Source of the DNA: an uncultured Verrucomicrobia subdivision 3 bacterium
Lineage (GTDB): Bacteria; Verrucomicrobiota; Verrucomicrobiia; Limisphaerales; UBA8199
Reading direction: 5' to 3'
Length of the DNA: 58,661 bases
NCBI GenBank assembly: GCA_903912925.1
Contig: CAIWJG010000374.1
Location: forward strand, 1-58,661
In this document: positions 5,184 through 57,353 of the stretch, in pieces
Position numbering within the stretch: the first letter of the stretch is position 1
Layout of the letters: every line of letters begins with the position of its first letter
Made by a program: the position numbers and the translations under genes
Notes under the pieces: model-generated
Databases searched by the model: none
What the model saw: only the letters and a program-made list of their open reading frames with translations
What the model was told of the DNA's origin: nothing

Positions 5184-5195
5184 CTCAGGCCCAGC

Positions 5196-10325: not shown

Positions 10326-12587
10326 TCAGGGGCTGGTAGATGTGCCTGGCGGGTGGGAGGAAGGGGCCGGAGCGGCAAGCGCGGCGTCCAGGTTCTTGCG
10401 GGCCTCCGCATAATCAGGCTTGAGTCTCAGGGCCTCCTGAAACTCCCGGATCGCCTCCCCGGTGCGTCCTTGCTTGTAAAGAGCGCTGCCCAGGTAATTG
10501 TGGGCCTCGGGGTAGCCGGGCCTCGCTTTCAGGGCTGCCTCAAAATGACGAACTGCCTCGGCCGTTTCGCCTCTCAGGCCGAGGGCAAGACCGAGGTTGA
10601 ACTGGGCCTCGGCATAATCCAATTTCAACCGGACCGCTTCCTGGAATTGGCGGATCGCCTCGTCCATTTGGCCCTTCCTGCCGAGGGCGATACCCAGCTC
10701 GTTGTGGGCCTCGGCGTAATCCGGTTTCAAGCGGATGGCCTCCTCCAATTGGCGGATGGCCTCCTCCATCTGGCCTTTCCTGTTGAGGACAATACCGAGG
10801 CCGTAGTGGGCGCCGACTTGATTTGGTTTCAAGCGGATAGCTTCCCGGAATTCGCGAATTGCCTCGTCCACCTGGCCGTTCTTGTTGAGGGCAATGCCGA
10901 GGTTGCAGTAGGCGCTGGAGTAACGCGGTTTCAAGCGGATGGCCTCCTCGAATTGGCGGATCGCCCCATCCATCTGGCCCTTCTGATCGAGCGCGATGCC
11001 AAGGCCATTGTGCGCGCCGTCATTGTTCTCGGTTACAGCGAGCGCATGTCGGAACAGGACCTCACTGTCGTGCCAATAGCCGATCTGTTGCCGCGTCATT
11101 GCCAGGCAGGCGAAGACCGCCACCCCGCCGGCCACCGATAGGAGGATGGGCGTGGAACGTGAAGCGTGGAGCGTGGAGCGTGCAAGCGCGTGTCCTACGC
11201 TCCCACGCTCCTCACGCTCCTCACGCTCCACGCCCCCTGCGGCCTTCCCCTGCATCAGTGCATACGCGCCCCAGACGGCGAGGATCACCACCCCCAGTGA
11301 CGGAAGATAAGTATAGCGATCTGCCATCGCGTGGCTGCCGGTCTGGATTATTTGGCTAACGGGCACCAGGGTCCCGCAATACCACAGCCAGCCCATCAGC
11401 AAGCAGGGATACCGCCGCCGCGCCGCCCAAAACAGCACCGAAATGCCCAGGATCACCGCCCCGGCCAGCAGCACCTTCTCCAATGGCCATTGCCCGGGGT
11501 GCGGATACACCACCGCCAGCTCCGCGGGCCAGAACAGCTTCCCCAAATAGCGGCCATAAGAAATCAGCGCGTTCCCGGCGCGCGCGCCCAAAGGCAGGCT
11601 TTCCCCCGCGTCCAACGCGCCGGTGTGCCGCTGCACCACGAAGGTCACCACGCTCGCCAGCGCCACGAGGAAAAAGAACGGGATCTTCTCGAAGAGCAAT
11701 GGAAGGTGAAACGTGAAACGTGAAATGGGTTGCGTGCCGGTGCCCGCTTCATTCTGCTTTCTGCATTCTGCATTCTGCATTCTTCGTAGCGGCCAATAAT
11801 CCAGTAGCAACATCACGAACGGCAACGTCACCAGCATCGGCTTGCTCATCAAGCCCAGGGCGAGGAAGCACAAGGATAGGAGATAGAAGATGCCGGTGTG
11901 AAACGTGAAACGTGAAACGTGAAACGTGAAACGGGTTGCGGGTTGCGTGTCGGTGGCCGCTTCATTCTGCATTCTGCCTTCTGCATTCTGCATTCTCCGT
12001 TGCGCGTAGCGGACGTAAGCGATTAAGGAAAGCAGTCCGAAGAACCCGCTGAGCACATCCTTCCGTTCGGACACCCAGGCCACCGATTCCACATGCAGCG
12101 GGTGCCACCCAAATAGCGCCGCCGCCAATACGCTCCGCCAAAGCGCTCCGGTAAGACCCCACAGAAACAGAAAGAATAGCATCGTGTTGACCGCGTGCAG
12201 CAGCACACTGGTCAGGTGATGTCCCCAGGGGTTCAAGCCAAACAGTTGGCAGTCCGCCATGTGCGACAAAACCGTCACCGGATGCCAAATGCAGTTTACC
12301 GGGGTGAGCAACGCCCACTTCACGCTTTCCCAGGTCAATCCCTTTTGGACCTGAGCATTTGCGGTGACGTGCAGATCGTCATCGTAGTTGACAAAGTCAC
12401 CGCGCGTCGCCGGCCAATAAATGGCAATTGTCACCAGCAACAGCAGTGCGGCAATCAGCCACAGCGGGATGCGCGGGGAATGGGAGTGAGGGGAGTGAGG
12501 GGCGGTATGGGGTGCGGCTTGAAACGTGAAACGTGAGGTCCGACCTTGGACCTCGGACTTCGGACTTTTGCCTTCTGCCTTCTTCAT
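10326..12587 (-). CDS. P1: TMTC-like GT-C membrane domain + ~8 TPR protein (putative protein O-glycosyltransferase)
   Basis: 753 aa. First-loop acidic motif 'FVNYDDDLHV'; 'WHPLHVESVAWVSERKDVLSGFFGLLSLIAY' is a DUF1736/TMTC-type block. C-terminal TPRs read 'AHNGLGIALDQKGQMDGAIRQFEEAIRLKP...'. The start lies 6 nt after the P2 stop. Confidence 0.75.
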   Translation of the reverse strand: MKKAEGKSPKSEVQGRTSRFTFQAAPHTAPHSPHSHSPRIPLWLIAALLLLVTIAIYWPATRGDFVNYDDDLHVTANAQVQKGLTWESVKWALLTPVNCIWHPVTVLSHMADCQLFGLNPWGHHLTSVLLHAVNTMLFFLFLWGLTGALWRSVLAAALFGWHPLHVESVAWVSERKDVLSGFFGLLSLIAYVRYAQRRMQNAEGRMQNEAATDTQPATRFTFHVSRFTFHTGIFYLLSLCFLALGLMSKPMLVTLPFVMLLLDYWPLRRMQNAECRKQNEAGTGTQPISRFTFHLPLLFEKIPFFFLVALASVVTFVVQRHTGALDAGESLPLGARAGNALISYGRYLGKLFWPAELAVVYPHPGQWPLEKVLLAGAVILGISVLFWAARRRYPCLLMGWLWYCGTLVPVSQIIQTGSHAMADRYTYLPSLGVVILAVWGAYALMQGKAAGGVEREEREERGSVGHALARSTLHASRSTPILLSVAGGVAVFACLAMTRQQIGYWHDSEVLFRHALAVTENNDGAHNGLGIALDQKGQMDGAIRQFEEAIRLKPRYSSAYCNLGIALNKNGQVDEAIREFREAIRLKPNQVGAHYGLGIVLNRKGQMEEAIRQLEEAIRLKPDYAEAHNELGIALGRKGQMDEAIRQFQEAVRLKLDYAEAQFNLGLALGLRGETAEAVRHFEAALKARPGYPEAHNYLGSALYKQGRTGEAIREFQEALRLKPDYAEARKNLDAALAAPAPSSHPPGTSTSP
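11148..11235 (-). repeat. In-frame imperfect palindromic insert (GGAGCGTG / CACGCTCC units) in P1
   Basis: GGGCGTGGAACGTGAAGCGTGGAGCGTGGAGCGTG-CAAGCGCGTGTCCTA-CGCTCCCACGCTCCTCACGCTCCTCACGCTCCACGCCC. It encodes 'GGVEREEREERGSVGHALARSTLHASRSTP' just before the last TM helix. Confidence 0.85.
11706..11785 (-). repeat. Heptamer cassette, P1 second loop site: (GTGAAAC)n - spacer - (TTCTGCA)n
   Basis: GTGAAAC GTGAAAC GTGAAAT GGGTTGC GTGCCGG ... TTCATTC TGCTTTC TGCATTC TGCATTC TGCATTC. It encodes 'RRMQNAECRKQNEAGTGTQPISRFTFH'. Confidence 0.9.
11898..11996 (-). repeat. Heptamer cassette, P1 first loop site
   Basis: GTGAAAC x5 (11898-11932), then GGGTTGC-type decayed units, then TTCTGCA-type units at 11961-11996. 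It encodes 'RRMQNAEGRMQNEAATDTQPATRFTFHVSRFTFH'. Confidence 0.9.
12531..12587 (-). repeat. Heptamer-built 5' end of P1
   Basis: GAAACGT x2, then CTTGGAC CTCGGAC TTCGGAC TTTTGCC TTCTGCC TTCTTCA up to the start codon. It encodes 'MKKAEGKSPKSEVQGRTSRFTF'. Confidence 0.8.
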
Positions 12588-12593
12588 TCTGCC

Positions 12594-15293
12594 TCAGCGG
12601 TTGGTGGCGGTGCCCGGAAGCCGCACAGAACCTGCGTGGGTGGCCAGCGCGGCCGCCAGGTTCGTGCGGGCATTGGCATAGTCAGGATTGAGTCTCAGGG
12701 CTTCCTGGAACTCTCGGATCGCTTCGCTCGTGCGTCCGTTCTGGCCGAGGGCAATTCCGAGGTTGTTGTGGGCGTTAGCCTGATCCGGTTTCAAGCGCAG
12801 AGCTTGCTGGAATTGGCTGATCGCCTCGTCCATCTGGCCTTTGCTCATGAACGCGGCGCCGAGGTTGTTGTGGGCGCTGGCGTAATCCGGTTTCAGGCGG
12901 ACGGCTTCCTGGTAATGGCGGATCGCTTCGTCAATCCGGCCTTTCCTGAAGAGGGCGATGCCGAGGTTGTAGTGCGCCTCCGCGTCAGCCGGTTTGAGTC
13001 GGACGGCTTCCTGGAATTCGCCTATCGCCGTGTCAACCTGGCCTTTCTTGAGGAGAGCGTGGCCAAGGTTATTGTGGGCGTCGGCGTAATCCGCTTTTAG
13101 GTGGATGGATAGCAAGTATTGGCCAATCGCCTCGTCAGTTTGGCCTCTCTGCTCGAGGGCGGCGCCAAGATTGTTGTGCCGGCTGGCGACTCCAGGCTTC
13201 AGGAGAAGCGCTTGCCGGAATTGACTGATCGCCTCGTCAATTTGGCCCTTCTTGACGAGGGCCGCGCCGAGGTTATCGCGGGCATCGGCATGTTCCGGGC
13301 TCAGGCGGAGCGCTTCCCGGTAGCGGCTCATCGCCGCATCAACCTGGCCTTCTTTGAAAAGCGCGATGCCAAGGTAGTTGTTAGCATCGGCAGAGTCGGG
13401 ATTGAGCTTCAGAGCTTCCTGGAGCTCCGGGATCGCTTCGCTGGGGTGGCCTTTCTGGCCGAGAGCAATTCCGAGGTTTCGGTGGGCATCGGCGCTATCC
13501 GGTTTCAGGCGGAGTGCTTCCCGTAATTGGCTGATCGCTGCGTCCACTTGGCCCTTCATGGCGAGGGCCTCGCCCAGGTGGTTGTGGGCATCGGCGTCCT
13601 CCGGTTTTAGGCGGAGGAATTCCTGCAAACGGTTAATCGCCTCGTCAACTTTGCCATTCTTGAGCAGCGCGAGGCCCAGGTTGTAGCGGCCGTAAATGTT
13701 ATCAGGTTTCAGGCGCAGCCCTTCCTGGAATTCGACGACCGCCTCACCGGCTTGGCCTTTTTCGACGAGGGCGATGCCGAGGTTGTTATGTGCGGCGGCA
13801 TTGTTCTCGGTGACTTCAAGCACATGGCGGAATAGGGTTTCGCTGTCCTTCCAATAACCAATCTGTTGCCGCGTCAACCCCAGGCACAGCACGATCGCCA
13901 CACCTCCTGCCACCGACAACGCCAGCACGGGATATCGCCAGCGTCGGGTCAGTTCGCAGGCGCCCCAAACCGTGATCATCAGCACCCCAACGGACGGCAA
14001 ATAAGTGAAACGATCCGCCATGAATGAAACCCAGCCCTTGGTCAAGCCAATCACCGGGATCAAGGTTCCCAAGAACCAGCACCAACCAACCAGCAGGTAA
14101 GGCCGCCGCCGCCCAAACCACAAGACGGCCAAACCCACGCCAACCAGCACCACAACCGATCCCCCCACCTCCAGCCACGACCAATGGCCGGGATTCACAT
14201 AGGGCACGGCCAGTTTGACTGGGCAGAAGGTCTTGCCCAGATAACGGGTGTAGGCCACCAACGCGTTCTCCAGCCGAAGCAGCGCCGGGGCCTCCTCAAA
14301 ACCAGCCGCTATCTGTCTCCCCCTTTCTGTCGAGTACGTGACGAAGCACGAGATCACGCTCAATGCAAAGAATGGGATCTTCTCGAAGAGCAAGGGGCGG
14401 ACGTGATGCGTGAAACCTGAAACGTGAAACGTGAAGGGTGTTGCGGGTTGCGTGTCGCTGGCTTCCACATTCTGCATTCTCTTCAGCGGCCAATAATCCA
14501 GCAGCAACATCACAAACGGCCAAGTCACGAGCGTCGCCTTGCTCATCAACCCGCAGGCGAAGAAGCACAAGGATAGGAGATAGAAGATGGAAGTTGGGAC
14601 TCGAACATCCAACATCCAACATCCAACATCGAACGCCGAACCTGGCACTACGGCCCGCGCCGCGCCCTCCGACTTCGGATTTCGGGTTTCGGGTTTCGGA
14701 TTTCCTTCGGATTTCGGGTTTCGGGTTTCGGATTTCCGCCTCCCCCTCCCTTGCGCGTAGCAGGCGTAAGCGATTAAGGAAAGCAGGCCAAAGCAGCCAC
14801 TGAGCACATCCTTCCGTTCCGTCACCCACGCCACCGACTCCACCCGCAGCGGATGCAGGGCAAACAGCGCCGCCACCACCACACTCCGCCACATCGCCCC
14901 CGTCAACCTCCGAAGCAGCAGGAACAACAACACGCCGTTGGCGGCGTGAAACGCTACATTCGTAAAGTGAAACCCCCCGGCCTTCCGGCCAAAGAGGCTC
15001 GCGTCCAACATCAACGAAAGCCAGGTCAGCGGATGCCAGTAATCCCCCTCATTCAGGCTAAACGCCCATTTCACCCCCTCCCAGTTCAAACCGCCCTGCA
15101 CGTGGGCGTTGGAGGTGACAAATTGAGGATCATCGTAGTTGATGAAATCAAAGCCCGTCACCGGCCAATACAGGACCAGCGTCACCAGCGCCAGCAAGAC
15201 GCCCATCAGCCACGCTGGTAGATGCGGCCAAGCCATCGCCGCGGTGGCTGCCCTCGTCGGGGTGGGTTCAGATTCGGTCTCTGGTTGGCGCAC
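12594..15293 (-). CDS. P2: TMTC-like GT-C membrane domain + ~13 TPR protein
   Basis: 899 aa with 'FINYDDPQFV' and 'LHPLRVESVAWVTERKDVLSGCFGLLSLIAY'. It has a long TPR domain and ends 'LPGTATNR'. Confidence 0.75.
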   Translation of the reverse strand: MRQPETESEPTPTRAATAAMAWPHLPAWLMGVLLALVTLVLYWPVTGFDFINYDDPQFVTSNAHVQGGLNWEGVKWAFSLNEGDYWHPLTWLSLMLDASLFGRKAGGFHFTNVAFHAANGVLLFLLLRRLTGAMWRSVVVAALFALHPLRVESVAWVTERKDVLSGCFGLLSLIAYACYAQGRGRRKSETRNPKSEGNPKPETRNPKSEGAARAVVPGSAFDVGCWMLDVRVPTSIFYLLSLCFFACGLMSKATLVTWPFVMLLLDYWPLKRMQNVEASDTQPATPFTFHVSGFTHHVRPLLFEKIPFFALSVISCFVTYSTERGRQIAAGFEEAPALLRLENALVAYTRYLGKTFCPVKLAVPYVNPGHWSWLEVGGSVVVLVGVGLAVLWFGRRRPYLLVGWCWFLGTLIPVIGLTKGWVSFMADRFTYLPSVGVLMITVWGACELTRRWRYPVLALSVAGGVAIVLCLGLTRQQIGYWKDSETLFRHVLEVTENNAAAHNNLGIALVEKGQAGEAVVEFQEGLRLKPDNIYGRYNLGLALLKNGKVDEAINRLQEFLRLKPEDADAHNHLGEALAMKGQVDAAISQLREALRLKPDSADAHRNLGIALGQKGHPSEAIPELQEALKLNPDSADANNYLGIALFKEGQVDAAMSRYREALRLSPEHADARDNLGAALVKKGQIDEAISQFRQALLLKPGVASRHNNLGAALEQRGQTDEAIGQYLLSIHLKADYADAHNNLGHALLKKGQVDTAIGEFQEAVRLKPADAEAHYNLGIALFRKGRIDEAIRHYQEAVRLKPDYASAHNNLGAAFMSKGQMDEAISQFQQALRLKPDQANAHNNLGIALGQNGRTSEAIREFQEALRLNPDYANARTNLAAALATHAGSVRLPGTATNR
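14403..14484 (-). repeat. Heptamer cassette, P2 second loop site (partly decayed)
   Basis: GTGATGC GTGAAAC CTGAAAC GTGAAAC GTGAAGG GTGTTGC GGGTTGC GTGTCGC ... CACATTCTGCATTCTC. It encodes 'KRMQNVEASDTQPATPFTFHVSGFTHH'. Confidence 0.85.
14603..14737 (-). repeat. Alternative heptamer cassette, P2 first loop site: ([CG]AACATC)n + (CGG[AG]TTT)n
   Basis: GAACATC CAACATC x3 GAACGCC (14603-14644). CTTCGGATTTCGGGTTTCGGGTTTCGGATTTC is duplicated in tandem (14672-14737). It encodes 'RRKSETRNPKSEGNPKPETRNPKSEG...SAFDVGCWMLDVRV'. Confidence 0.9.
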
Positions 15294-15311
15294 GGGACTC
15301 GCCAGAATAAC

Positions 15312-17519: not shown

Positions 17520-17577
17520 ACAACTCCCCTAACTATTGCTCAACCGCAGGACAAGGTCGGGACTTTAGCATGGCGAT

Positions 17578-17607
17578 TCTATAGCTGGAAAGCCGGTGCG
17601 TTGACAA
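17578..17607 (-). promoter_or_regulatory. Candidate sigma70-like promoter upstream of P3 in the 114-nt P4-P3 gap
   Basis: The minus strand reads AGCTTGTCAACGC-...-TATAGA: -35 TTGTCA, 18-nt spacer, -10 TATAGA. The 13-mer GCGTTGACAAGCT (plus strand, 17598-17610) recurs at 30633-30645 in front of P9. Confidence 0.35.
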
Positions 17608-17633
17608 GCTTGATCGTGCTGCCACCGGCACGG

Positions 17634-19922: not shown

Positions 19923-19927
19923 TCTGA

Positions 19928-22609: not shown

Positions 22610-22655
22610 GCTTTAGATCTTGGTCGCGGCTTGGCTCATAGAACTCCCAACCAAC

Positions 22656-24581: not shown

Positions 24582-24586
24582 TCTGA

Positions 24587-26563: not shown

Positions 26564-26575
26564 TCTTCATTCTGA

Positions 26576-28681: not shown

Positions 28682-28702
28682 AGAGCAGCTCGGTAAATGA
28701 AC

Positions 28703-30550: not shown

Positions 30551-30612
30551 AGGAGTCCTCCAGCATACTACTGCGGGACCACACCCGGAGGTCGAAACTT
30601 AAGCACAACCAC

Positions 30613-30642: not shown

Positions 30643-30650
30643 GCTCCAAC

Positions 30651-30678
30651 AAAAAACCGGGCCCCACTGGGGGCCCGG
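30651..30678 (-). terminator. Rho-independent terminator of the giant gene
   Basis: The minus strand reads CCGGGCCCC-CAGT-GGGGCCCGG followed by TTTTTT. This is a perfect 9-bp GC stem and 4-nt loop, starting ~66 nt after the stop codon. Confidence 0.8.
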
Positions 30679-30743
30679 CTGTAATTGCTTTCTATTCTAT
30701 CGCGCCGTTCTTCTCAAAGGTTCGAAGTCCGGGCGCAGTCCGG

Positions 30744-54700: not shown

Positions 54701-57353
54701 CTGAGACGGAAATGCTGCCGGTGACCACGATATTCGTAGTGATCGTGAAGTCAATATGCGCCGTCGCCATGTCGTTGGTGACATAGATACTGCCGGTCAT
54801 ATTGACCGGAGCATAGTCCAAGCTTAGGTCCAAGACGCCGCTGGCCGTGCCACCGTAATAGGCCACGCCGGAGCTGCTAAAGGGCAGACTTACGGTGAAC
54901 GTGCCACCATTGGCCCCGGGGGTCTGGCTAATCGTGGTTGTCGCCGCAGGGCTCGCCACAGTTTTGAGGATCGAAAACGGATGGCCAGGGCCGCCGATCG
55001 TGGCCGTTACGGGAATATTCACACTCGCAAAAGTGAACGTGTACGCAAAAAGATACGGGGCCAGAGCGGTCATTTGAAGGTTCTGCACCGTGATCTTCGT
55101 CGGGCTGTCGGGGTTGTCCAATTCGACCGCGAGATAGCCAGTTACCTTGTTGTTTCCGCTGGTGGTCTTCGAGCCAAGGTCCGTGCTGCCGCTGGCAGGG
55201 TGCATCATGAGGGAAATGGCGAGCGTGGAGGTGTTGGTATTGAAGGGCAGCGATACCAACTGCTGATAGGTGATGGTCAATGAACTCGACGGGGTGCCGC
55301 CGCCGCACGGCGAGGCGTCAGCGGTCAGGGTCATCACCCACGAGCCCGCCGCGCGCTCGACGGCACTCGGCGTATAGACCGCGTTCAACTGCCGGGCATT
55401 CGGGCTGTAGGTGCCCGAGCCGCCACTCCAGGTGGCGCCGGGGCTGTTGCCGATGCTGCCGGCCAGTTGCACGGCGCCGTAGGTGCCGGATACCATCTGG
55501 TTCGGCCCCGCGTTGACGGTCGCGTTGCCGGTGGCCAGGTAGGCCGTGACCGGGTTAGCCGCACCCTGGCAGCCAATCGCGCTGGTTTCAGTCACGTAGT
55601 AAGTCGTCGTGGCGCTGATGTTCGGGCTAAAGGTGGGGCCCGTGCCTACCTGCGAAGTCGCGCCCGCATTGGACCACCACTTCAACACGGCCCCGGGGCT
55701 GCCGGTGCCGATGGCGCTCAGGTTCACCACGCCGGGGCCGCAGGTGGCGCCCCCAGTCGTAAGCGGCGCGACGGGTGGGACACCGTAGCCGAGCACGACC
55801 TGCGAGGTCGCATCGCCGCAAGGCTGCGCGGTTAGTGTCAGCGTGACGCCGCCCGACACCACCTCCGCCAGCGTGGGCGTGTAGGTTGCGTTCAGGGTCG
55901 TGTTATTCGGGGAGAACGTGCCGGCCCCGCCGCTCCAGATTGCCCCGGTCGCCCCGCCGCTTTTCGTGCCGGCCAACTGCACTGGGAGTCCGGTGGGACG
56001 GAAGAACAGGCTGCCCGGGATGTTGGCCCAGCTTGTGCCGCCGGTCGGATCCCAATACACAGCCAAGCCGTTCCCGCCGCCGCCCTGATTAAAACGAATA
56101 ATGATGTCGTGGTAACCCGCCGTCAAGGCGATCTGGCCGGAACTCACGGGAGTATTGTAGCCTTGACAAAAGTTGTTCTTCACAATGGCCTGGGCGAAGG
56201 TCGGATTAGCCGTGCCCGGGTCAATCCAAACCGCGCTGCCGTCGTCGCTCTGGGTTGCGAAGTTATAATTGCCGTCGGTGGCGATGTAGAGTTTGCCGCG
56301 GTATTCCACCGCATAGTTGGTCGTGTAGCCCGTCGGGAACGGGCCAGGAGAGGCCACGCCGCAACCGTTGCCCGCCAGGAAGTGCTCCAAGGGACCGGCG
56401 CCACTCATGCTGAGGGACTGCGTCGCGTAGCCGATCGTCCCGGCGGCCGTGGAAGCGGTCGGCGCCGGATTAGGACTGGTGGCATCGAACTGCACGCCCT
56501 CCATGGTGCCGCCACACTGATCGCCCGCGGGCAACCCAGTTGCGGCATTCCACTGGTTCCACGCCCGAACGAGGAGCCCCGCCGGAGCCGTGGGGTTGCA
56601 GACCGGCGGAATCGTGCCCGCATTCACCGTCGCCGCCGCCCGAATGGTCACCACCACCTGCGCCGACGCCGGCGAGCACAGCACATTCTGGCCCACCGAG
56701 GTTAGCGTCAAGGTCACCGTCGCAGCGTCGCCCGCTGAAGGTGTGTAGGTCGCGTTCAGTGTGGTCGCGTCCGGTACAAAGCTGCCCGTGCCGGTGGTTG
56801 TCCAGGTGCCGCCCGTCGCGCCGCCGCCCACCTGGCCGCCCAAGCCGGTAGTGCTGGCGTTTCGACAGATCGTCTGGTTGGGACCCACCGCCACCGTGGG
56901 AGGCGCATAAACCGTCAGCGTCACCGGGGTGGTTTCCTGCATGTCCTCATCGTCGGCCAGAATGACCTTGACCAGCCAGCCGTTCTCGCTCGCCGTGGTA
57001 GGCGAGAACGCAGTGCTGAGATTGTTGCCGCCATCCGGGGTAGCGGTCCAATTGGCGCCAGCATCCGAACTATACTGCCACTGAATGAGCAGGGTGCCTG
57101 CCGACGCTGTGGCGTCCACCGTGAAGGTGGCCGTCGTCGGGGCGCAAACCGTCTGGGCGGTTGGCGGGCTATTAATGGTCACCATGGCCTGGGCCACCTG
57201 GCTCAGGGCAAACAACACTCCGAGCACGGCAAGCCAGCCGAGCGCGAAGCGTGGGCGTGACGCGGCGCATCTCGGTTTGATGTTGATGGCTGTTTTAGGG
57301 GATGACTGTTTCATGGCAATACTTGGGCGGGGGGTCACCTGTGAGGTTTTCAT
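30744..57353 (-). CDS. Giant secreted repetitive surface/adhesin-like protein (8869 aa)
   Basis: A single uninterrupted ORF with a Sec-like N-terminus ('FALGWLAVLGVLFALSQVAQA'). By my manual count it has ~38 modules of ~85 aa ('NAGPNQTIC...GGATGGTWS..G.GTF.PNATTLNATYTPSAAD..AGTVTLTLT..GQ..C...AQVVVTI') and at least 13 Ig-like modules ('...LTYQWQVS.DGG.TF.N....TNASYT......D.G..Y.V.VSG.C'). It also has MBG-like 'K.YDGTT' modules, Big_3-like modules ('G.V.F.D......'), two PATR regions ('G.GTL.LSG.NTY.G.T.V.AGTL') and two PA14 domains. An alternative start at codon 14 (MKQSS) is possible. Confidence 0.9.
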   Translation of the reverse strand: MKTSQVTPRPSIAMKQSSPKTAINIKPRCAASRPRFALGWLAVLGVLFALSQVAQAMVTINSPPTAQTVCAPTTATFTVDATASAGTLLIQWQYSSDAGANWTATPDGGNNLSTAFSPTTASENGWLVKVILADDEDMQETTPVTLTVYAPPTVAVGPNQTICRNASTTGLGGQVGGGATGGTWTTTGTGSFVPDATTLNATYTPSAGDAATVTLTLTSVGQNVLCSPASAQVVVTIRAAATVNAGTIPPVCNPTAPAGLLVRAWNQWNAATGLPAGDQCGGTMEGVQFDATSPNPAPTASTAAGTIGYATQSLSMSGAGPLEHFLAGNGCGVASPGPFPTGYTTNYAVEYRGKLYIATDGNYNFATQSDDGSAVWIDPGTANPTFAQAIVKNNFCQGYNTPVSSGQIALTAGYHDIIIRFNQGGGGNGLAVYWDPTGGTSWANIPGSLFFRPTGLPVQLAGTKSGGATGAIWSGGAGTFSPNNTTLNATYTPTLAEVVSGGVTLTLTAQPCGDATSQVVLGYGVPPVAPLTTGGATCGPGVVNLSAIGTGSPGAVLKWWSNAGATSQVGTGPTFSPNISATTTYYVTETSAIGCQGAANPVTAYLATGNATVNAGPNQMVSGTYGAVQLAGSIGNSPGATWSGGSGTYSPNARQLNAVYTPSAVERAAGSWVMTLTADASPCGGGTPSSSLTITYQQLVSLPFNTNTSTLAISLMMHPASGSTDLGSKTTSGNNKVTGYLAVELDNPDSPTKITVQNLQMTALAPYLFAYTFTFASVNIPVTATIGGPGHPFSILKTVASPAATTTISQTPGANGGTFTVSLPFSSSGVAYYGGTASGVLDLSLDYAPVNMTGSIYVTNDMATAHIDFTITTNIVVTGSISVSAVPTFVGHADMVGPTILPRNMVWNGGTFNWNTTDTNWNLGTAKWNNMRPDSATFGATGSGTVNLNTPITAGSIWFQVPGYTVVGSGANVLTLAPSSVQVLDNVLANLPAITNDANALISASIAGSAGWRKWGVGTLVLSSANTYSGGTFVNAGVLEINDNAALGAVPGTPAVNVTLSGGQLLSSSSLSLAANRSVSLPGGGAYLAAGAGTTFTINGAISGADGLGVVWDSGTVVLNGAGSYAGVTTIGVTGNAFNNSAGANPTLQLNRSGALPGTDLIFGTSANANTASLDLHGTANTVARLTGGANAIVDNLAAGAATLTVGNGNASSTFSGIMQNTAGTVALTKIGTGTFSLANANSYVGNTLVNGGTLALLSGGSLLSQVRVGPGSTFDVSAQASPFFSPPLGGLADNTGVATLKGPAGGTIDAVQPIYLYIDTVRPALTVSQSSLSLNGNAFTIDADAPLRVGIYPLIQVATGSLATNGTFTASGPAIATGFGGFIEVNGNTLMLNVVQLSLPSTTTLDPVATPQIYGSVAQFTARVTPIDATGTVTFKDNGVVVGVVTLDGTTGVAHYTPTPTQLTVPDNPHAIVAVYSGREGNPGLGIIGYAGSVSDPAPLTISPKPVTLSGTKAFDNTTVLSGTNMSVVGNLDGAALFVSGDAKAGNQNAGSTIVQAPGSQTPSFVANRGTGLIDTGTSIPITLSAAPAIGNTLIATIGYRNATDTSNAVLNVTQTGVTWTRAAGWYKPNGLISEEIWYGNVTCRGTPGTAVTINFGSYTVRAGAQISEFSGVLYGSPLDVSGGNSGNSGPNGAFDSGPAITTTAAPELWVAGGSMKGYGSGTTSTSSCATGGLSYPTPTTPSLFVSIGTTDSGSSSCNYSDRIRTLGYYYAAPSAGSAQFNAPMNNFTAGWAVDWASCIATFRQNQWVNTLALSGSAASNYTNSTAVGGTVAVTGKPITVTAATATKIYDGTTTSAVLPTYDTGQLYCGDTAVASQTYATRGVGSGINLIPNLVFTDGNAGANYTAVRVNGTGTITPKALTVSGSIASNKTYDATTADVLSGTPAFQAGEAAGTGTTADGKPYTVDSVAALGPPVGVFATPYVGAAKPVTVSGVTATGSGASNYSVTQQTGLTATITARPVQLVGTKTYNGITAVIAGNLTAPNNLDGGNLTLSGSATLGNRNIGGTIAIVSTNGLTLGGALSTNYTLVGASGTVAVAKTNLTVTASANTKLYDGAIIALAVATVQPGGIQPSDIAPSWTETYDNRNAGTGKTLTPAALLVSDGNSGANYAYSYVPQNIGTITQIPLTITAQPNTKMYDGTTTAVTRGILAVTNIISPDIVSVWPETYDNINVGTSKTLTPSGVVADGNAGLNYSYNYVQNHAGAITNLVITPSEQPVSFTGCLGSPAVFTTTVPGVGLSYQWQVSYDYALTYTNLVNATNASYTNPAVTLADSGNFYQVIVSGPGTATITSAPPAELTVSIGLSSSANPVNQTVCSGAPTAVLHGIIGNGAYVALWSGAGTFSPTNNVLDVTYTPSASEISAGSATVSLTGSQPGSVCVPAVSTATIVILPGPVVHAGPNQTVCADAPRTQLAGAIGGTANSFYWSGAGTFVKNVYETNAIYVPTAGEIAAGSATVTLTANAPSGPCAPVTSTMTISISPAATAAVGPNQTICSSDVTAALGGTVGGAATGGLWTASPGGGTFLPDATSLNATYTPSAADKTAQAVTLTLHATGQLLPCLETAHVLVTIHPLATVTTGGNQTICADQVTAGLGGTVGGGATGGTWSTAGTGTFVPNNTALNATYHPLASDKTARAETLTLTTTGQLSPCTPATIQLVVTIHALPAITSQPVNLTVCAGHPAAFAVSTTGTALTYQWQESLDFGGSWSSVTDATNASYTIPAAGLITDDGKLIQVIVSGACVPAVTSTPPAELTVNEAPTVQAGPDQTVCASSPATLLAGSFGGLATTATWSGAGAFVPNATTLHAVYTPTATEIAAGSATVTLTTDNPGGTCPAAFASMTITINPVATANAGPNQTLCSISPAAQLGGSFGGVATSATWSGAGTFVPSIYVMNPVYTPSAAEITAGSATVTLTTDDPNGPCPRAISTMTVTINHPSAITSQPVSLTNCAGSPATFTVAASGTGWLYLWQLSQDNGTNWTPISDSATNASYTIPAPTISQSGNQFQVIVSSAGCPGSHTSDAATLTVYELPAVTSSPTNLTLCAGSPAIFYSTSTGVGLSYQWQVSTDGGTTYANILPDASNGYSSTNPTYGEYVTTVAENGNEYRVIVSGTCTPSATSAPPAVLTIHTPATASAGANQTICSIGTADLSGTVNGGATGGKWSGGTGSFQPNPTALNATYHPSPADISAGSVTLTLTTTGQLTPCPAVTSQMVVSIQPVAVVSAGANQTICSTASTLGLGGAVSGGTTTGQWTTAGTGTFSPDATTLNATYAPSTDDATAGTVTLTLTSTGNQSTCAAQTAQVVVTVHKVAVVSAGGNQTICSSGTTVGLGGTVSGGTTTGQWTTSGTGTFAPNATTLNATYAPTAADATAGTVTLTLTSTGDLSTCTAQTAQVVVTVHKAAVASTGGNQTICANQSTAGLGGAVSGGATGGTWTSSGTGTLTPDATTLNATYSPSDADKSAGTVTLTLTTTGQLSPCSATSTNLVVTIHAVPAITSQPNNLTVCAGSPAIFAATATGASLTYQWEVSQDSGLTFTNVSATATNASYTNAVTALADNGNRYKVVVGGACTPSQTSEIAALTVYAPATASAIGPQTICSGNDTAALGGTVGGGATGGTWTSSGTGDFIPDATSLNATYTPSMDDLIGTGTVTLTLTATGQQAPCGAATATVVVTIHPEATASAGGNQTICSGLPTAALGGIVDGSATNGIWTTSGSGAFTPNSITPNAIYTPSAADITAGTVTLTLITTDAPAPCPQVAVQVVVTINPAAQVNAGPNQTVCSSSPTVTLAGSFGGGATSATWSGAGSFAPNNSAMNATYTPSAGEITAGNATVTLTTDNPPGPCGLASASMTITISPAATVAAGPNQTVCSSSPSVTLAGSFGGGAPSATWSGAGSFAPNRTTMNATYTPTAGEIAAQSATVTLTTDEPQTLRPSGPCGSVNASMTITIHPAATASAGGNQTICAGSATASLNGTVGGGATGGTWSGGSGTFSPNATTLNATYQPSANDITVGSVTLTLSSTGQQTPCGALTAQVIVAINATPAIESQPANVTVNSGVPATFCVGATGASLSYQWEVSGNNGVTFTNISAIATNACYTNPATTLADDAKQYRVVVTGSCSPGQTSTVAVLTVGLPYTVYAGPDQTICAGESTQLAGQYGNGAMGAIWTSGGSFAPNSTTMNAIYTPSASEISAGSATLTLTTHPPGSVSSTMTITINPTAQVNAGPNQTVCSISPATQLAGSFGGGATLAYWSGAGLFLPNIYATNAIYTPTATEIAAGSATLSLFSNDPPGPCGAATNSMTITIHPAATASAGGNQTICAGSATAGLGGTVSGATGGTWSGGSGTFNPNATTLNATYQASANDITSGTVTLTLTSTGQQSPCLAATAQVVVTIRAAATVNAGGNQTICASGSTVTLNGSYGGAATGATWSGAGSFAPNSTTMNAAYSPTETELAAGSATVTLTSSGQLAPCGAATASMTMTINAPPHITGQPQSQTNCAGSPATLTATATGTGLQYQWQVSTNGGATFANVSSTATNTSYTIAATTVAESGYQYHVIIDNAACSAITSAPPAVLTVHGLPTITSQPASLTKCAGSAATFSVTATGTDLTYQWQVSANGGVTFTNISDTETNTSYTIAATTLAESGLKYQVIVSGACSPAQTSTPPAVLTVNALATASAGANQTICSSGLTAGLGGTVGGGATGGTWSSPGAGTFTPNATTLNATYTPSAADKTAGTVTLTLTTTGQQTPCGAATAQVVVTIRPAATVGASGNQTICSTGVTAGLGGTVGGGATGGTWSSPTSGTFTPNATTLSATYTPTAADISAGTVTLTLTTAGQQTPCGAVTAQVVVTIRLAATVGAGGNQQIYAGVSTTGLGGTYGGGATGGTWSSPGLGTFNPNATTLNATYTPSAADKTAGTVTLTLTATGQQAPCVATTNLVVTILTPTNTTVALVPASVSSPKAYGTTVLSATVLPSGATGSVTFMDSTTTLAVVPLSGGTASLATNLTVNGGAAHPIQALFNDPTGRYTNSVSAVSNVVITAKALTLAGTKTYDGGTNVTPAQGLALSGVVGGDSVSLAPATGLVLLAGRNSGSQAVSYTPTTPTRVRFATGATPAAAATTIAVTMSAAPANGNTMIAVISTRGTSSGRVTSIAQTGATWSRASQSVGTGGSTTEIWYAPNVLNAAALVTITQASLRSAAIVMEYSGVLTAGALDQVANSNANSTAAVTGTTPATTQANEVWVGGIGLVNSTYTLTSTNGGFTSPTNAVSAGASASANAKVYALELVVAASGAATSGGTVSASSQWSGAIATFRAKYSVLTLAGAAASNYTLTTSGTVAVAQSNLTVTAAANTKVYNGTTSAAAIPTITAGTIQTGDTATSWTETYSDKHAGTGKTLTPAGVVTDGNSGNNYSYTYTPIITGVINATNLTVTAVVNTRIYNGNATAAANPTITAGAIQTGDSAPTWTEAYSDKNVGTGKTLTPAALKVTDGNSGNNYSYTYTPVVTGAINATNLTVTAAVNTKIYDGTASAAANPTITAGAIQAGDSAPIWTEAYSDKNAGTGKTLTPAPLKVTDGNSGNNYSYTYAPIITGVINATNLTVTAVANTKIFDGTTSAAANPTITAGTIQTGDTAPTWTETYDNSNPGTGKTMTPVALKVTDGNTGLNYSYTYTPVSTGEISLLQISQQPTNVEVCSGTPAIFTVVLTNAVGLTYQWQASMDNGVTFTNILANGTYASYTNLTTPPVDNGKQYQVIVAEGTGSVTSAPPAVLTTGAPVTASSGGNQTICAGSPTAGLGGTVGGGATGGTWTSSGAGVFTPNATTLNATYTPSVAEVAAGTATLTLTTSGQNPACSAAVTQMTVTIHAAPAITGQPASVTVCAGTPAVYSVIATGVGATYQWQVSVDYGITFTNLIVNATHASYTNPAPSFAEDNNLYQVVVTVASCPPLTSSPVWLTILTAPTADAGVNHTVCATSAATALIGSTGGSATSATWSGAGTFSPTNNVLNVTYTPTAAEILAGTATVSLTAVSDLGDCRPAVSTTAIKIDPAPTVNAGPNQSVCASSPITQLAGSFGGAATNAVWSGAGRFTPNPFGMSPTYTPTASEISAGSATVTLTSNDPVGPCEAVTSTMTITIHPVATASAGANQTICAGSSTAGLGGTVGGAATGGTWSSATGGTFTPNATTLNATYTPSAADISANAVTLTLSSTGQLTPCAEAVAHVTVTIHPAATASTGGNQTICADQITTGLGGTVGGGATGGTWSSTTGGTFTPNATALNATYTPSAADKTAGAATLTLSTTGQLTPCTPATAQLVVAVHALPAITGQPANQTVCAGSPVVLSVETTGTALTYQWQVSLDYGVTFTNVSDTATNANYTNLTPTLADSGKFYQVIVSGACSPAVTSAPPAELTVDQPPTAQIVIVGNQTVVCASSPSVPLLGSFGGGATTAAWSGAGTFAPNATSLNAVYTPSADEIAAHTTTVTLTAHDPTAICTPAIATSTITINPAAQVNAGPNQTVCATSPNTQLAGSFGGAATSAKWSGAGRFVQNAFIMNAVYIPTASEIAAGTATVTLTTDDPIGPCGAVSASMTITIHQAATASAGGNQTICSDTPTAGLGGTVSGGATTGTWTSSGTGSFVPNATTLNASYTPTAADTSAGTVTLTLTTTGQEPCSAATAHVIVSIHPVATANAGANQTVCSSSPTVTLAGSIGGGATGAAWSGAGAFAPDHTSLSATYTPTAAEISAGSATVTLTTSGQVAPCGPVSSAMTITIHAAAVASAGANQTICAGQSTAALGGTVSGGATGGDWSSTGTGTFAPDATALGATYTPSAADNSAGTVTLTLTSTGQQAPCSAATAHVVVTIHALPAIAGHPANATVCAGSPASFCVTATGTALTYQWQVSADGGVTFTNISDTATNACYTNEVTTVANSGNQYQVIVSGACTPSQTSVPPAVLTVNPLEAASTGGNQTIYVGHSTAPLGGSVGATATGGLWTSSGTGTFVPDATTLNATYTPTAADNTAGTVTLTLTALPCAGATAQVVVTIRSAASASAGGDQTICATHSTAGLGGSVGNGATGGIWTSLGTGTFAPDNTTLNASYAPSAADDSSGTVTLTLTTTGQPAEVSPGTAQVIVTIRALPTANAGPNQTLLASLSTNIVLAGSVGGTATGGTWSGGAGTFSPDATTLNAAYTPSASEKSAGSWALTLTSTGSPCGSATSSMMFTVMPEFTLQLATNSSLNINICLDPSSDLGGTIIDLGMQCTNQTQNLNGSMSFQLDSISHPTQIAMQDFRYVAMQPYVLSLTWTLGSLVVPVTATVGTLEQPATLYNGNPGKATLAPINPADGSFTLSNVVFAVSALAYYGGTASGSIDLSGYGAALTNDVPGTIAVSNEVASVHMDYTVYEYFLVSGELQVTGFAAFHVVIDATGRTTVPRYMVWNNGAGTGQWNSIDLNWNNGSTAWDNNRGATDTAIFPSNKTGTVTLVQPMTAGALDIQGAGHTITGSSLSLASQSAITNDADAVISGAIVSGSLNKWGGGKLTLSGVNTYAGATTVGAGTLEYSALGAMGSTSAITVQNGAEVSFASGFAGQTVSTPMQLSGMGVDGGALHTFVPGGEITFTGPLTLQGNTQIRGQAAASSTVNFDSAISGSGDVTFFGAGDGSDQVTFVVAAANSYTLGTNYSYSTTYANGLSIRAWANVSDALLQGARFSVTSPSPAPTDSTAAGTIGYATQSINMALVDQEAFSETNGCGVAAPGPFPTNYVNTYTVEYRGKVYIASAGTYSFGTISDDSSSIWIDPPSDNPITAQATAYNGSVNVLASGSKDMSVGYHDIIVRYNEGTGGNGLQVLWKAPSDVDFSPIPGANFFTATTVTNIATYGGNTYITNSGAIADVKLSGGNNRLPASTVVYLSAPGNSSVLDLNGNSQTLVGVADFGATAGIRSVRNSSGTASLLTLGGSGAYAYSGTVDGHLAVIKNGIGKQTLSGVNTYAGNTLINAGTLALGHSLASSSSVTLAAGATLDVSAVSGTYTLGGAATITADGNASAATIVGPVGGTVDLGSRPIVLTYDGTHPAISVSQGTVSLGGNQFTVNTANPLEVGDYPVIQQASGDVVATGPCTVIGTSIGLGFAGSIVVSGGQVNLHIISTATPTTTTLGTIATPQVYGATVLSANVVASDLSTVSGNVSFKDSGIVVGTAPVSGGTASLTVNLAVNGGAPHAIQALFSDPAVVYAGSSSAVSNLVITARPITVAGSKNYDGFPVIDSSNLSIPNNLDGANLTLSGTAVIAGRNAGPEAVLSATYAAPARVQVATFGVSGNGAATFAVTLGRAPTSGNTLVAVIATRGTTNNTVTSITQANVTTWKRASQAANPGNNTNGVTTEIWYAPVGASAGTAVTISQAASLRSCAIVVEYSGMLTSAAVDQTANATGIGTNAVTGTTSSTSLGNELWIGAIGLTNSAQTLGSVLNSFSTVTNAQSSYFQSTFNSRVYALEKIVSGTGTANSGGTISGPAIWAGAVATFYGVPGLSLGGSAAANYTVAGVSGTVTVVATNLTVTAATNTKAYDGTTTAAAIPALTAGNIQHGDTAPAWTESYDNSNAGVSKTLTPAGLVNDGNGGANYSYTYAPDHTGVITGSSSSVGLVSSTNPSVELASVTFTATVTGVPPLALPTGNVVFLANGTPFATNALSGGIATASTTALPIGHNAIIAQYLGNGAFPANSSSALDQVVTSSVIYSYVNVIKSLTKNGIGTYSLNALGTPGALYYVVASGNIKAPMSAWIPVVGGTNTASSPSGTWSCVVSNPAPVFYRSIAVNPAP
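30747..31010 (-). other. Unassigned ~88-aa C-terminal domain of the giant protein
   Basis: 'SSVIYSYVNVIKSLTKNGIGTYSLNALGTPGALYYVVASGNIKAPMSAWIPVVGGTNTASSPSGTWSCVVSNPAPVFYRSIAVNPAP'. No PEP-CTERM, LPXTG, beta-barrel or RTX-type signal was recognised. Confidence 0.5.
31620..32240 (-). other. Unassigned 'X' domain, copy 3 of 3 (giant protein)
   Basis: 'TFAVTLGRAPTSGNTLVAVIATRGTTNNTVTSITQANVTTWKRASQ...TEIWYAPVG...AIVVEYSGMLTSAAVDQTANATG...NELWIGAIGLTN...RVYALEKIVSGTGTANSGGTISGPAIWAGAVATF'. It is collinear with the copies at 41225-41840 and 51935-52620. Confidence 0.6.
32760..34870 (-). other. PATR (autotransporter-associated beta-strand repeat) region 2, interrupted by PA14 #2
   Basis: Contains 'GGGKLTLSGVNTYAGATTVGAGTLEY' and 'GIGKQTLSGVNTYAGNTLINAGTLALG', and ends '...VVSGGQVNLHII'. 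Confidence 0.65.
33585..34080 (-). other. PA14 domain #2
   Basis: 'YTVEYRGKVYIASAGTYSFGTISDDSSSIWIDPPSDNP...SVGYHDIIVRYNEGTGGNGLQVLWKAP'. This is the PA14/GLEYA-type pattern and a paralog of 56005-56510. Confidence 0.7.
34880..35500 (-). other. Unassigned 'U' domain, copy 2 of 2
   Basis: 'EFTLQLATNSSLNINICLDP...VVPVTATVGTLEQP...ALAYYGGTASGSIDLSGYGA...VASVHMDYTVYEYFLVSGELQV...PRYMVWNNG'. It is collinear with 54640-55260. Confidence 0.6.
35500..40130 (-). repeat. Module array 2: alternating ~85-aa Cys-pair modules and Ig-like modules
   Basis: Repeated 'NAGPNQT[IV]C...[LM]NA[TV]Y.P[ST]...TLT...C' modules interleave with 'YQWQ[VA]S' Ig-like modules. Several neighbouring copies are very similar at the DNA level. 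Confidence 0.8.
40135..41160 (-). repeat. ~4.5 tandem copies of a 252-255-bp repeat (MBG-like modules)
   Basis: GTAGGTGTAGCTGTA recurs at 40158, 40413, 40668 and 40923 (spacing 255 nt). The protein reads 'NLTVTA.ANTK[VI]Y[ND]GT.SAAA.PTITAG.IQ.GD.A..WTE.YSDK..GTGKTLTPA...VTDGNSGNNYSYTYTP..TG.INAT'. Confidence 0.9.
41225..41840 (-). other. Unassigned 'X' domain, copy 2 of 3
   Basis: 'TIAVTMSAAPANGNTMIAVISTRGTSSGRVTSIAQTGATWSRASQSVGTGGSTTEIWYAPNV...AIVMEYSGVLTAGALDQVANSNANS...NEVWVGGIGLVN...KVYALELVVAASGAATSGGTVSASSQWSGAIATF'. Confidence 0.6.
42345..50545 (-). repeat. Module array 1: ~22 Cys-pair ~85-aa modules interleaved with ~8 Ig-like modules
   Basis: Same module types as array 2. For example, 46960-47480 holds two nearly identical adjacent modules ('SAGANQTICSTASTLGLGGAVSGGTTTGQWTTAGTGTFSPDATTLNATYAPS...'). 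Confidence 0.8.
51935..52620 (-). other. Unassigned 'X' domain, copy 1 of 3
   Basis: 'IPITLSAAPAIGNTLIATIGYRNATDTSNAVLNVTQTGVTWTRAAGWYKPNGLISEEIWYGNVT...AQISEFSGVLYGSPLDVSGGNSGNSG...PELWVAGGSMKG...WAVDWASCIATF'. Confidence 0.55.
53170..54560 (-). other. PATR (autotransporter-associated beta-strand repeat) region 1
   Basis: Contains 'WGVGTLVLSSANTYSGGTFVNAGVLEINDNAALG' and 'GTGTFSLANANSYVGNTLVNGGTLALL', and ends '...IEVNGNTLMLNVV'. Confidence 0.65.
54640..55260 (-). other. Unassigned 'U' domain, copy 1 of 2
   Basis: 'LVSLPFNTNTSTLAISLMMHP...NIPVTATIGGPGHP...GVAYYGGTASGVLDLSLDYA...MATAHIDFTITTNIVVTGSISV...PRNMVWNGG'. Confidence 0.6.
56005..56510 (-). other. PA14 domain #1
   Basis: 'YAVEYRGKLYIATDGNYNFATQSDDGSAVWIDPGTANP...TAGYHDIIIRFNQGGGGNGLAVYWDP'. 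It is preceded by 'SPNPAPTASTAAGTIGYATQS', matching 'SPSPAPTDSTAAGTIGYATQS' in copy #2. Confidence 0.7.

Follow-up and report, generated by a model that had tools for sequence, protein, structure and literature searches.

A tandem array of predicted GT-C/TPR glycosyltransferase genes beside a giant repeat-protein gene in a Limisphaerales bacterium

Introduction

TMTC1-4 (CAZy family GT105) are the eukaryotic O-mannosyltransferases of cadherins and protocadherins, and they combine a membrane domain with tetratricopeptide repeats (TPRs). A similar combination is encoded by a nine-gene array in an uncultured Verrucomicrobia subdivision 3 bacterium of the order Limisphaerales (contig CAIWJG010000374.1, assembly GCA_903912925.1), where the array follows the gene of a giant repeat protein. 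Is the giant protein the dedicated substrate of the enzymes encoded next to it? A preliminary description of the 58,661 nucleotides (nt) analyzed here, which we call the window, had proposed that it is, and that the nine enzymes form with it a protein O-glycosylation system. We find that proposal partly supported: a lipid-sugar-dependent GT-C enzyme with periplasmic TPRs is supported for eight of the nine products, and dedication to the adjacent giant is not. We judge, with a probability of about 0.6, that the nine genes form one tandem array among the many that belong to a family expanded in Limisphaerales-type lineages, that eight of them encode lipid-sugar GT-C/TPR enzymes, and that the array is not built around the giant.

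Enzymes of this bacterial kind are not new as such. Prokaryotic TMTC-like homologues have already been noted (PMC7801869), and the papers on TMTC consulted here mention only prokaryotic homologues or distant bacterial homologs and name no bacterial substrate. The bacterial GT-C/TPR family is known as a kind and is uncharacterised. JGI already annotates family members as O-mannosyltransferases, and family membership at this locus is not new in kind.

Locus organization

An open reading frame (ORF) map agreed with the arrangement described earlier: an 8869-codon ORF on the minus strand, then a gap of 193 nt (given as ~190 nt), then nine back-to-back genes on the same strand, which occupy 10326..30550 with a spacing of 5-114 nt. 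The strong terminator reported in the gap was also found, as a predicted hairpin at 30680-30655 with a T-run. A separate promoter-like site had been reported there as well, and a consensus scan of the gap returned 0 such sites. Positions below are those of the whole window unless a locus designation precedes them, and protein lengths are in amino acids (aa).

30744..57353, minus strand: giant secreted repeat protein, 8869 aa, with signal peptide, PA14, Ig_7, PATR, YDG and at least 41 Ig-like modules of ~91 aa with a conserved Cys pair
30655..30680, minus strand: intrinsic-terminator-like hairpin 64 nt past the giant gene stop codon, with an 11 bp stem (9 GC) and a T-run
28703..30550, minus strand: p1, GT-C/TPR paralog, 615 aa, ~4 TPRs
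26576..28681, minus strand: p2, GT-C/TPR paralog, 701 aa, with a 5' (AGAATGC)n tract at 28629-28660
24587..26563, minus strand: p3, GT-C/TPR paralog, 658 aa
22656..24581, minus strand: p4, GT-C/TPR paralog, 641 aa, with population variants of 634 and 648 aa
19928..22609, minus strand: p5, 893 aa, a different polytopic membrane domain and ~12 TPRs, carrying a (GTGAAAC)4 tract
17634..19922, minus strand: p6, GT-C/TPR paralog, 762 aa, ~8 TPRs, with variants of 755, 749 and 748 aa
15312..17519, minus strand: p7, GT-C/TPR paralog, 735 aa, ~8 TPRs; the modeled protein, with 11 transmembrane helices, D55-D56 in the first extracytoplasmic loop and TPRs from residue 456
12594..15293, minus strand: p8, GT-C/TPR paralog, 899 aa, ~12-13 TPRs
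10326..12587, minus strand: p9, GT-C/TPR paralog, 753 aa, with a (TTTCACG)n tract at ~11725

Fold and topology of the membrane domain

The products p1-p4 and p6-p9 are 55-69% identical over their first ~480 residues. Common to all eight, exactly as the preliminary description had it, are the motifs F-[VI]-[NT]-[YL]-D-D and HPL[RH]VE[SA]V..V.ER[KR][DE]VL. Strong TPR arrays are present in all nine array genes, and the protein lengths fit ~4-5, 8 and 12-13 repeats; TPR scans and lengths together uphold the three classes (~4, ~8 and ~12-13 TPRs) that had been proposed.

Residues 1-465 of p7 were modeled with AlphaFold2 from 93 sequences, giving a predicted local distance difference test score (pLDDT) of 80 and a predicted template modeling score (pTM) of 0.84; a model of full-length p7 had a pLDDT of 85. 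When the full-length model was used with Foldseek, TPR proteins swamped the list, and so the membrane domain was modeled alone. A Foldseek search of the PDB with the 1-465 model placed GT-C enzymes, and nothing else, in the first 21 ranks, at probabilities of 0.95-1.0. These enzymes included Pmt4 of C. thermophilum and yeast, AftA, STT3, ArnT (5f15/5ezm), PglB, DPY19, Pmt1/Pmt2 and AglB.

Sequence libraries were less informative for the window proteins themselves. An NCBIfam scan of the nine N-terminal domains matched no family, and the profile of the paralog alignment matched none of the PDB sequences. A homolog that is 59% identical (P0068) does match Pfam PMT_2 (PF13231) over TM2-TM4, with an E-value of 7.7e-6 and 26.6 bits against a cut-off of 26.1. 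The assignment of a GT-C membrane domain in the preliminary description is sustained by the Foldseek list, by this PMT_2 match and by invariant residues of catalytic type. The relationship to GT-C families that it had expected is found in structure, where the top 21 matches are all GT-C, and not in matches of the window proteins to DUF1736 or PMT_2.

The model of p7 contains the following transmembrane (TM) helices (residue numbers):

TM1: 28-48
TM2: 106-132
TM3: 135-147
TM4: 158-~180
TM5: 208-225
TM6: 227-241
TM7: 278-297
TM8: 345-364
TM9: 370-390
TM10: 405-420
TM11: 427-452

In the models the TPR helices begin at residue 456, after TM11, and D55/D56 stand 7-8 residues past TM1 in the first extracytoplasmic loop (EL1). 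An RR pair lies beside TM1 in the N-terminal tail, and the short cytoplasmic loops CL4 (QRRRH) and CL5 (TRGWRY) are basic, so that Lys and Arg are enriched in the cytoplasmic loops. Because there are 11 helices and the loops follow the positive-inside pattern, the paralogs are predicted to be oriented with the N-terminus in and the C-terminus out, which would place both the DD loop and the TPRs on the periplasmic side. The location of these two elements on one non-cytoplasmic side, which the earlier proposal needed, thus holds at the level of prediction, as does its enzymology in general: a periplasm-facing GT-C enzyme like TMTC, PMT and ArnT, with TPRs, is supported by the modeling.

Conserved residues and comparison with known transferases

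Conservation was counted over the 93 sequences, which are 53-72% identical. Fourteen residues are invariant in 93/93: D55, D56, W87, P89, H148, P149, E153, E160, R161, Y337, P385, D399, R400 and Y403. K226 and T231 are kept in 92/93. The invariant DD and ~14 further membrane-domain residues argue for a conserved active site.

Seven motifs, M1-M7, have been described in TMTC1-4: DD, SHKSYRP, RxD, KE(T/Q)xxT, DW, PxxP and ERxxY (PMC7801869). We compared the bacterial family by spacing with the positions of these motifs in TMTC1 (PMC7801869). Counterparts occur at near-TMTC1 spacing for DD, for R161-x-D163 in EL2, for K226..T231 in EL3, for P385 in TM9 and for D399-R400..Y403 in EL5 (a [DE]RxxY motif). 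NWHPLT stands in place of M2, and the second Pro of M6 is altered or absent. The position equivalent to DW is D/N/E (85/93) followed by L, the Trp of M5 being replaced by Leu. In TMTC, DUF1736 (PF08409) is the TM7-TM8 loop with the DW motif (PMC7801869). The preliminary description had called the HPL block of the bacterial proteins "DUF1736-type"; this label was wrong, there being no Pfam DUF1736 match, and the block is the EL2 helix that carries motif M3.

The window family thus resembles TMTC1-4 in several ways. Its N-terminal domain has ~450 aa and 11 predicted TM helices, the TPRs that follow it are predicted to be non-cytoplasmic, outer loop 1 contains DD, and the other motif counterparts just listed are present as well. 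Unlike TMTC1-4, it lacks Pfam DUF1736, has the motif replacements at M2, M4 (Glu to Pro) and M5, is bacterial, forms tandem arrays, numbers dozens of genes in a genome and has heptamer-encoded cytoplasmic loops. With PMT/POMT (GT39; PMT_2 clan) it shares the GT-C_A fold, C. thermophilum Pmt4 being a best Foldseek match, as well as an acidic pair in loop 1 and, in P0068, a PMT_2 match just above the cut-off. It differs from them in having a TPR array in place of the MIR domain, and the window proteins fall short of PMT_2. Our reading is that the domain would work like a GT-C of the TMTC/PMT/ArnT type; membership of GT105 proper is not established.

The products could instead be TPR scaffolds or pseudoenzymes and not active transferases. 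JGI labels many close homologs "protein O-mannosyl-transferase" (a KO-type label) and other homologs "Flp pilus assembly protein TadD" or "Tfp pilus assembly protein PilF", which are names of pilus-assembly TPR proteins, and the Glu of TMTC M4, which binds metal, is replaced by Pro. The TadD and PilF names derive from the TPR part only, however, and the invariance of the DD pair and the other membrane-domain residues across the 93 sequences makes a family of inactive scaffolds very improbable.

Conservation of the pairing with the giant gene

The strongest form of the earlier proposal is a dedicated O-glycosylation system in which the adjacent giant Ig/PATR protein is the substrate and the different TPR lengths address its different module classes. 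Several features suit it. The giant and the array are adjacent on one strand, the giant is exported through Sec, has 26% Ser+Thr and contains at least 41 Ig-like modules with columns that are 70-90% Ser/Thr, and the enzymes are TMTC-like in architecture, with TPRs predicted to be periplasmic. The arrangement also recurs: contigs with the exact p1 protein also carry p2 and the giant gene (truncated by the contig ends to 8,771-8,856 aa), and the contig of P0021 has the same arrangement of giant and array.

The contigs with the exact p1 protein are at least 99.9% identical to the window and belong to the same species, and this conservation therefore has no independent weight. Looking farther away, we assembled a comparative set of 78 loci from other genomes (neighbor clustering and repeat counts were made over 79 loci). 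In this set, 0/78 loci show an array that adjoins the gene of a PATR or Ig-repeat giant. Only 14/78 loci contain a frame that reaches 1,200 aa, even when frames running off the locus ends are counted. Six large upstream frames on the same strand were tested, and they encode two FHA-type (DUF3739) proteins, an SMC protein, a carbamoyl-phosphate synthase, a Kelch-repeat protein and one protein without a Pfam match, so that only 2/6 are of secreted type. The converse comparison gave a similar result. P0123, a relative of the giant C-terminus, has a UvrD helicase gene downstream and no GT-C/TPR neighbor. Apart from adjacency in one species, nothing thus supports a dedication of the enzymes to the giant: the co-occurrence in relatives that it would entail was absent from the 78 loci and from P0123, and the pairing was seen only in the nearly identical strains.

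The adjacency is itself weak evidence, because a terminator lies between the two units and because there are dozens of family members per genome, which makes chance adjacency likely. Co-transcription of giant and array is not predicted, given the terminator-like hairpin and T-run between the giant stop codon and p1. The p5 protein, moreover, is not a paralog in its membrane domain. A system dedicated to the giant is for these reasons distinctly unlikely. In a genome so rich in both kinds of gene, coincidence is the best reading of the adjacency, and the giant Ig-repeat protein could plausibly be one of many clients.

Distribution, arrays and gene neighbors

A profile of the eight paralogs matched more than 8,000 proteins in 90% clusters, which is a lower bound. 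In 50% clusters it matched 95,234, 60,179 and 22,257 representatives at E<=1e-3, 1e-10 and 1e-30, respectively, which places these bacterial TMTC/PMT-like GT-C/TPR enzymes among the largest uncharacterised glycosyltransferase families. Two subfamily-specific peptide patterns occur at 380 places in GTDB species genomes, mainly in Verrucomicrobiota, with a minority in Geobacteraceae, Desulfuromonadaceae and other "delta" metagenome-assembled genomes (MAGs). One MAG supplies at least 11 of the best 80 loci found with these patterns, and Limisphaerales genomes have dozens of family copies each. The names given to homologs likewise assign the source organism to Limisphaerales-type Verrucomicrobiota. 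Tandem arrays are the rule in the 78 loci, with up to 7-8 genes in 21 kb, and ~13 genes stand in a row on CAWIGO010000015.

All-against-all clustering of neighboring ORFs found no partner family in more than 9/79 loci. The most recurrent neighbors are an NAD-dependent sugar epimerase resembling GDP-fucose synthase (9/79) and a GT2 glycosyltransferase (8/79). The best NCBIfam matches of the GT2 proteins, which are sub-threshold, are to AglJ, dolichyl-phosphate hexose transferase, PpgS and ArnC, all polyprenyl-phosphate sugar synthases. Six loci have the GT2 gene within a few hundred nt of a same-strand GT-C/TPR gene:

L027, 7766-12055: GT2 gene beside GT-C/TPR gene, in a compact cassette with the order epimerase, GT2, GT-C/TPR
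L065, 9013-12178: GT2 gene beside GT-C/TPR gene
L059, 6260-9172: GT2 gene beside GT-C/TPR gene
L083, 3863-6527: GT2 gene beside GT-C/TPR gene
L017, 6981-8692: GT2 gene beside GT-C/TPR gene
L021, 17219-18939: GT2 gene beside GT-C/TPR gene

Since these neighbors resemble polyprenyl-phosphate-hexose synthases, they support a lipid-phosphate-monosaccharide donor for the family. They also recall the three-component systems (GT2 synthase, flippase and GT-C), to which ArnT (GT83) belongs: ArnT structures 5f15 and 5ezm are among the top structural matches, and relatives elsewhere adjoin GT2 genes like ArnC, AglJ and PpgS and an epimerase gene. The window differs in that no polyprenol-phosphate-sugar synthase or flippase is among its genes, as had been noted before, and ArnT has no TPRs and acts on lipid A.

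The same neighbors bear on a further alternative, in which the acceptor is not a protein. The enzymes would then modify lipid A or the lipopolysaccharide core, peptidoglycan, or some polysaccharide that is periplasmic or exported, in the manner of ArnT, Gtr-type and arabinofuranosyl GT-C enzymes, and the TPRs would scaffold partners in the envelope. The best structural matches include ArnT and AftA, no acceptor was identified at the locus, and a polyprenyl-phosphate-sugar synthase of the GT2 family and a sugar-nucleotide epimerase, the recurrent neighbors here, are partners in three-component glycan-modification systems (PMC11127046). Against this stand the TPR arrays, which are protein-binding modules. 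In both characterised TPR-bearing glycosyltransferase families, TMTC and OGT, the TPRs bind protein clients. One of the best Foldseek matches is a protein O-mannosyltransferase, and a repertoire of dozens of paralogs whose TPR arrays vary in length suits many protein clients better than a few glycan acceptors. We therefore regard a non-protein acceptor as unlikely.

Proposed function

We suggest that p1-p4 and p6-p9 are GT-C glycosyltransferases of the inner membrane, each crossing it with 11 TM helices, the N-terminus in and the C-terminus out. The predicted site would be lined by Asp-Asp of loop 1, R161/D163 of EL2, K226/T231 of EL3 and D399-R400-Y403 of EL5, and it resembles the polyprenol-phosphate-sugar site of ArnT, PMT and TMTC; a polyprenol-phosphate-sugar is probably the donor of all eight enzymes. 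The enzymes would take a single sugar from a polyprenol-phosphate-hexose, which a GT2 synthase with its gene at another place in the genome would make on the cytoplasmic side before it is flipped. The acceptor of this sugar would be bound in the periplasm by the TPR superhelix, whose repeats number 4-5, 8 or 12-13. From the TPR domain and the analogy with TMTC and PMT, the acceptors would most likely be Ser/Thr residues of exported proteins, and different paralogs may serve different sets of clients. In p5, a TPR array of this kind is fused to a different, uncharacterised membrane domain.

Several points weigh against this account of one array among many of lipid-sugar enzymes. A Pfam search with the nine N-terminal domains gave no match at E<=1, neither to DUF1736 nor to PMT_2, and DUF1736 is also absent from the precomputed Pfam lists of 120 homologs. 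The Foldseek E-values for p7 are weak (1e-3 to 1e-1, with TM-scores of 0.33-0.50), though the match list is uniform. Among the residues of the TMTC motifs, the Glu of M4 is Pro in the bacterial family, and the Asp of M5 is kept in only 64/93 sequences, with Gly in p4 and Lys in p8. For the bacterial family we infer the donor, the acceptor class and the sugar alike. The adjacency to the giant is kept in every same-species contig. Finally, in two other MAGs (L062, 3550-9921, and L067, 4713-9962) an FHA-type (DUF3739) protein of 1750-2124 aa ends right at a single same-strand GT-C/TPR gene, which hints that some members may pair with large exoproteins.

On balance, the preliminary description was largely right in what it observed, and it is partly confirmed. 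A true enzyme-client pair, if found, would open the family to experiment and bear on the origin of eukaryotic TMTC O-mannosylation. The present locus does not yet supply such a pair. Better leads are the cassettes of epimerase, GT2 and GT-C/TPR genes in other MAGs, such as that of L027, and the pairs of FHA-type exoprotein and GT-C/TPR genes in L062 and L067; the six GT2 loci listed above are better experimental entry points than this window.

Heptanucleotide repeats and strain variation

The most surprising feature of the locus is a set of hypervariable loops encoded by heptanucleotide repeats. Tandem Repeats Finder reported dozens of period-7 arrays in the nine array genes. These unit types are absent from 1..10300, where the sole period-7 array is an unrelated CGAGGGC repeat at 1132-1163. 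All of the perfect heptanucleotide tracts of at least three units in the window (26/26) lie in the nine array genes, and 0 lie in the 26.6-kb giant gene. Examples are:

23709-23807: heptanucleotide tract
23922-24020: heptanucleotide tract
25832-25930: heptanucleotide tract
28629-28660: heptanucleotide tract, at the 5' end of p2
29691-29796: heptanucleotide tract

The coding-strand units include (ATGCAGA)n, (CAACACG)n, (GTTTCAC)n, (CGAAATC)n and others, with several different heptamers in each gene. The tracts are read in frame as peptides with a period of seven residues, such as MQNAECR and FTFHVSR. The encoded segments are the N-terminal tail and the TM4-5, TM6-7 and TM10-11 loops, all of them predicted to be cytoplasmic, and they are the low-confidence parts of the p7 models. 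A heptamer tract is also present in p5, despite its unrelated membrane domain. The pattern extends across the family. Over the 79 loci, perfect period-7 tracts occur at 0.26 per kb in GT-C/TPR ORFs versus 0.027 per kb in 913 kb of flanks, and periods of 5, 6, 8 and 9 are essentially absent.

The commonest block was considered as a hairpin or an element like a miniature inverted-repeat transposable element and rejected, (ATGCAGA)n, (CAACACG)n and (GTTTCAC)n not being mutually complementary. Some cassettes of the TM10-11 loop (RNPK.. then ..GFGLRIS) look like inverted heptamer arrays.

Repeat number changes among close strains, inside ORFs or 5' of them, as is expected of contingency genes. Protein variants that are 98-100% identical to p4, p6 and p7 differ by tract changes of exactly seven residues or by replacement of a whole loop cassette. 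Only gains or losses of three units, equal to 7 aa, leave the frame intact, because the 7-nt repeats are part of the coding sequence. The locus L090, which is 97-100% identical to the window in nucleotides over aligned blocks, has 21 nt (three units) more at window positions 16970 and 11725, the latter being the (TTTCACG)n tract of p9. L086 has one AGAATGC unit fewer (-7 nt, window 28660) in the 5' tract of p2, where the downstream ORF keeps a start codon because the tract supplies ATG in all three frames. A split at a repeat-bearing loop was found in only 1/~180 genes (L031), and on/off phase variation through the heptamer tracts is possible. L090 also has an extra GT-C/TPR gene, encoding 740 aa (6006-8329), between p8 and p9 (window ~12590), so that array copy number varies within the species group, and it has a response-regulator gene before the GH2 gene.

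An earlier case of heptanucleotide repeats in coding sequence is NeuO of E. coli K1 (PMC13001214). There too the 7-nt units stand in tandem and in frame, and the strain variants of the window differ by exactly 7 aa or 21 nt. Unlike NeuO, the window genes have several heptamers each, at three or four cytoplasmic-loop sites and the 5' end, across a large gene family, and whole loop cassettes are swapped between variants. A keyword search of the literature for heptanucleotide or heptameric repeats did not find a family-wide, multi-site pattern of this sort, and we consider the family-wide link to hypervariable heptanucleotide repeats a lead that deserves its own study.

Two bolder propositions may be stated together: that the array glycosylates the neighboring giant adhesin, and that the heptamer tracts are a contingency or diversification device for the GT-C/TPR repertoire. 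We offer only tentatively, and with more doubt than confidence, that at least one of them is true. The first, if true, would mean that bacteria have a parallel to TMTC-cadherin O-mannosylation, and one whose client is identified. The second would mean that slippage and cassette exchange switch or reshuffle members, giving a variable pattern of surface glycosylation.

The giant repeat protein

The giant protein begins with a long n-region followed by a classical signal-like hydrophobic core (...FALGWLAVLGVLFALSQVAQA) that ends in AQA, in keeping with the Sec-type N-terminus assigned to it before. Its composition (Thr 16.2%, Ala 14.2%, Gly 11.9%, Ser 9.6%) likewise agrees with the Thr/Ser/Ala/Gly richness reported. 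Pfam and NCBIfam cover a small part of it, with 10 YDG stretches, four PATR/TIGR02601 repeats and one match each to PA14, Ig_7 and Ig_3, and self-BLAST gave no off-diagonal high-scoring segment pairs. The spacing of Cys residues is regular (63-65 / 26-29) and gives at least 41 modules of ~91 aa, mostly within residues ~2285-7118; this count is a lower bound derived from the periodicity of Cys pairs. The module consensus has a conserved Cys pair and several columns that are 70-90% Ser/Thr. The earlier phrase "dozens of small beta-sandwich modules" is a fair one for the giant, judged from Cys periodicity and weak Ig matches.

The consensus of the modules can be written ..NQT.CA..PT..L.G..GGGAT...WS..G.GTF.PN.T.LNATYTP.A..I.AG..T.TLT..G...PC.., and the modules retain two N-x-T triplets and several nearly invariant Thr positions. 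A search of GTDB representatives with the C-terminal 600 aa did not find an ortholog of the giant and returned only distant repeat-domain matches in Bacteroidota, Terriglobia and archaea; the ~91-aa module resembles the repeats of the Bacteroidota giant adhesins among these matches. A protein search with the last 900 aa found shorter repeat-protein relatives in other Limisphaerales.

The p5 protein

The preliminary description had counted nine paralogs, which stands for eight of them and fails for the membrane domain of p5. Nominal identity of p5 to the other eight is 27% in the alignment. Its membrane domain was considered as a divergent member of the eight-paralog family and rejected, the hhalign profile-profile probability being 1.3%; when the single p5 sequence was aligned with the family profile, hhalign matched only the heptamer-encoded insert. 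Apart from the TPRs, p5 has no Pfam or PDB sequence match. It is a member of a second large Verrucomicrobial family of membrane and TPR proteins, with at least 2,003 matches, whose conserved motifs include AEDxYYNLL and DLSYYHGKLYLYFG.

Flanking genes and other features

The genes that flank the array are housekeeping or unrelated ones, encoding KsgA, a class-III aminotransferase, a radical-SAM protein, glutamate dehydrogenase, a PQQ beta-propeller protein and a GH2 hydrolase. A DUF1559 prepilin-like protein, typical of the PVC group, is also encoded among them.

Two repeats lie in this flanking region. Between p9 and the GH2 gene, which stand 695 nt apart, an 11-nt unit (TAGTACCTTAA-like) is repeated five times in tandem at 10086-10149, a repeat that can alternatively be read as 22-nt units. 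At 3062-3171 is an imperfect palindrome whose ~45-nt arms are made of GGTTACAN octamer repeats. It sits between a divergent radical-SAM-like gene (2276-3016, minus strand) and the glutamate dehydrogenase gene (plus strand), and it may be an operator array or a hairpin.

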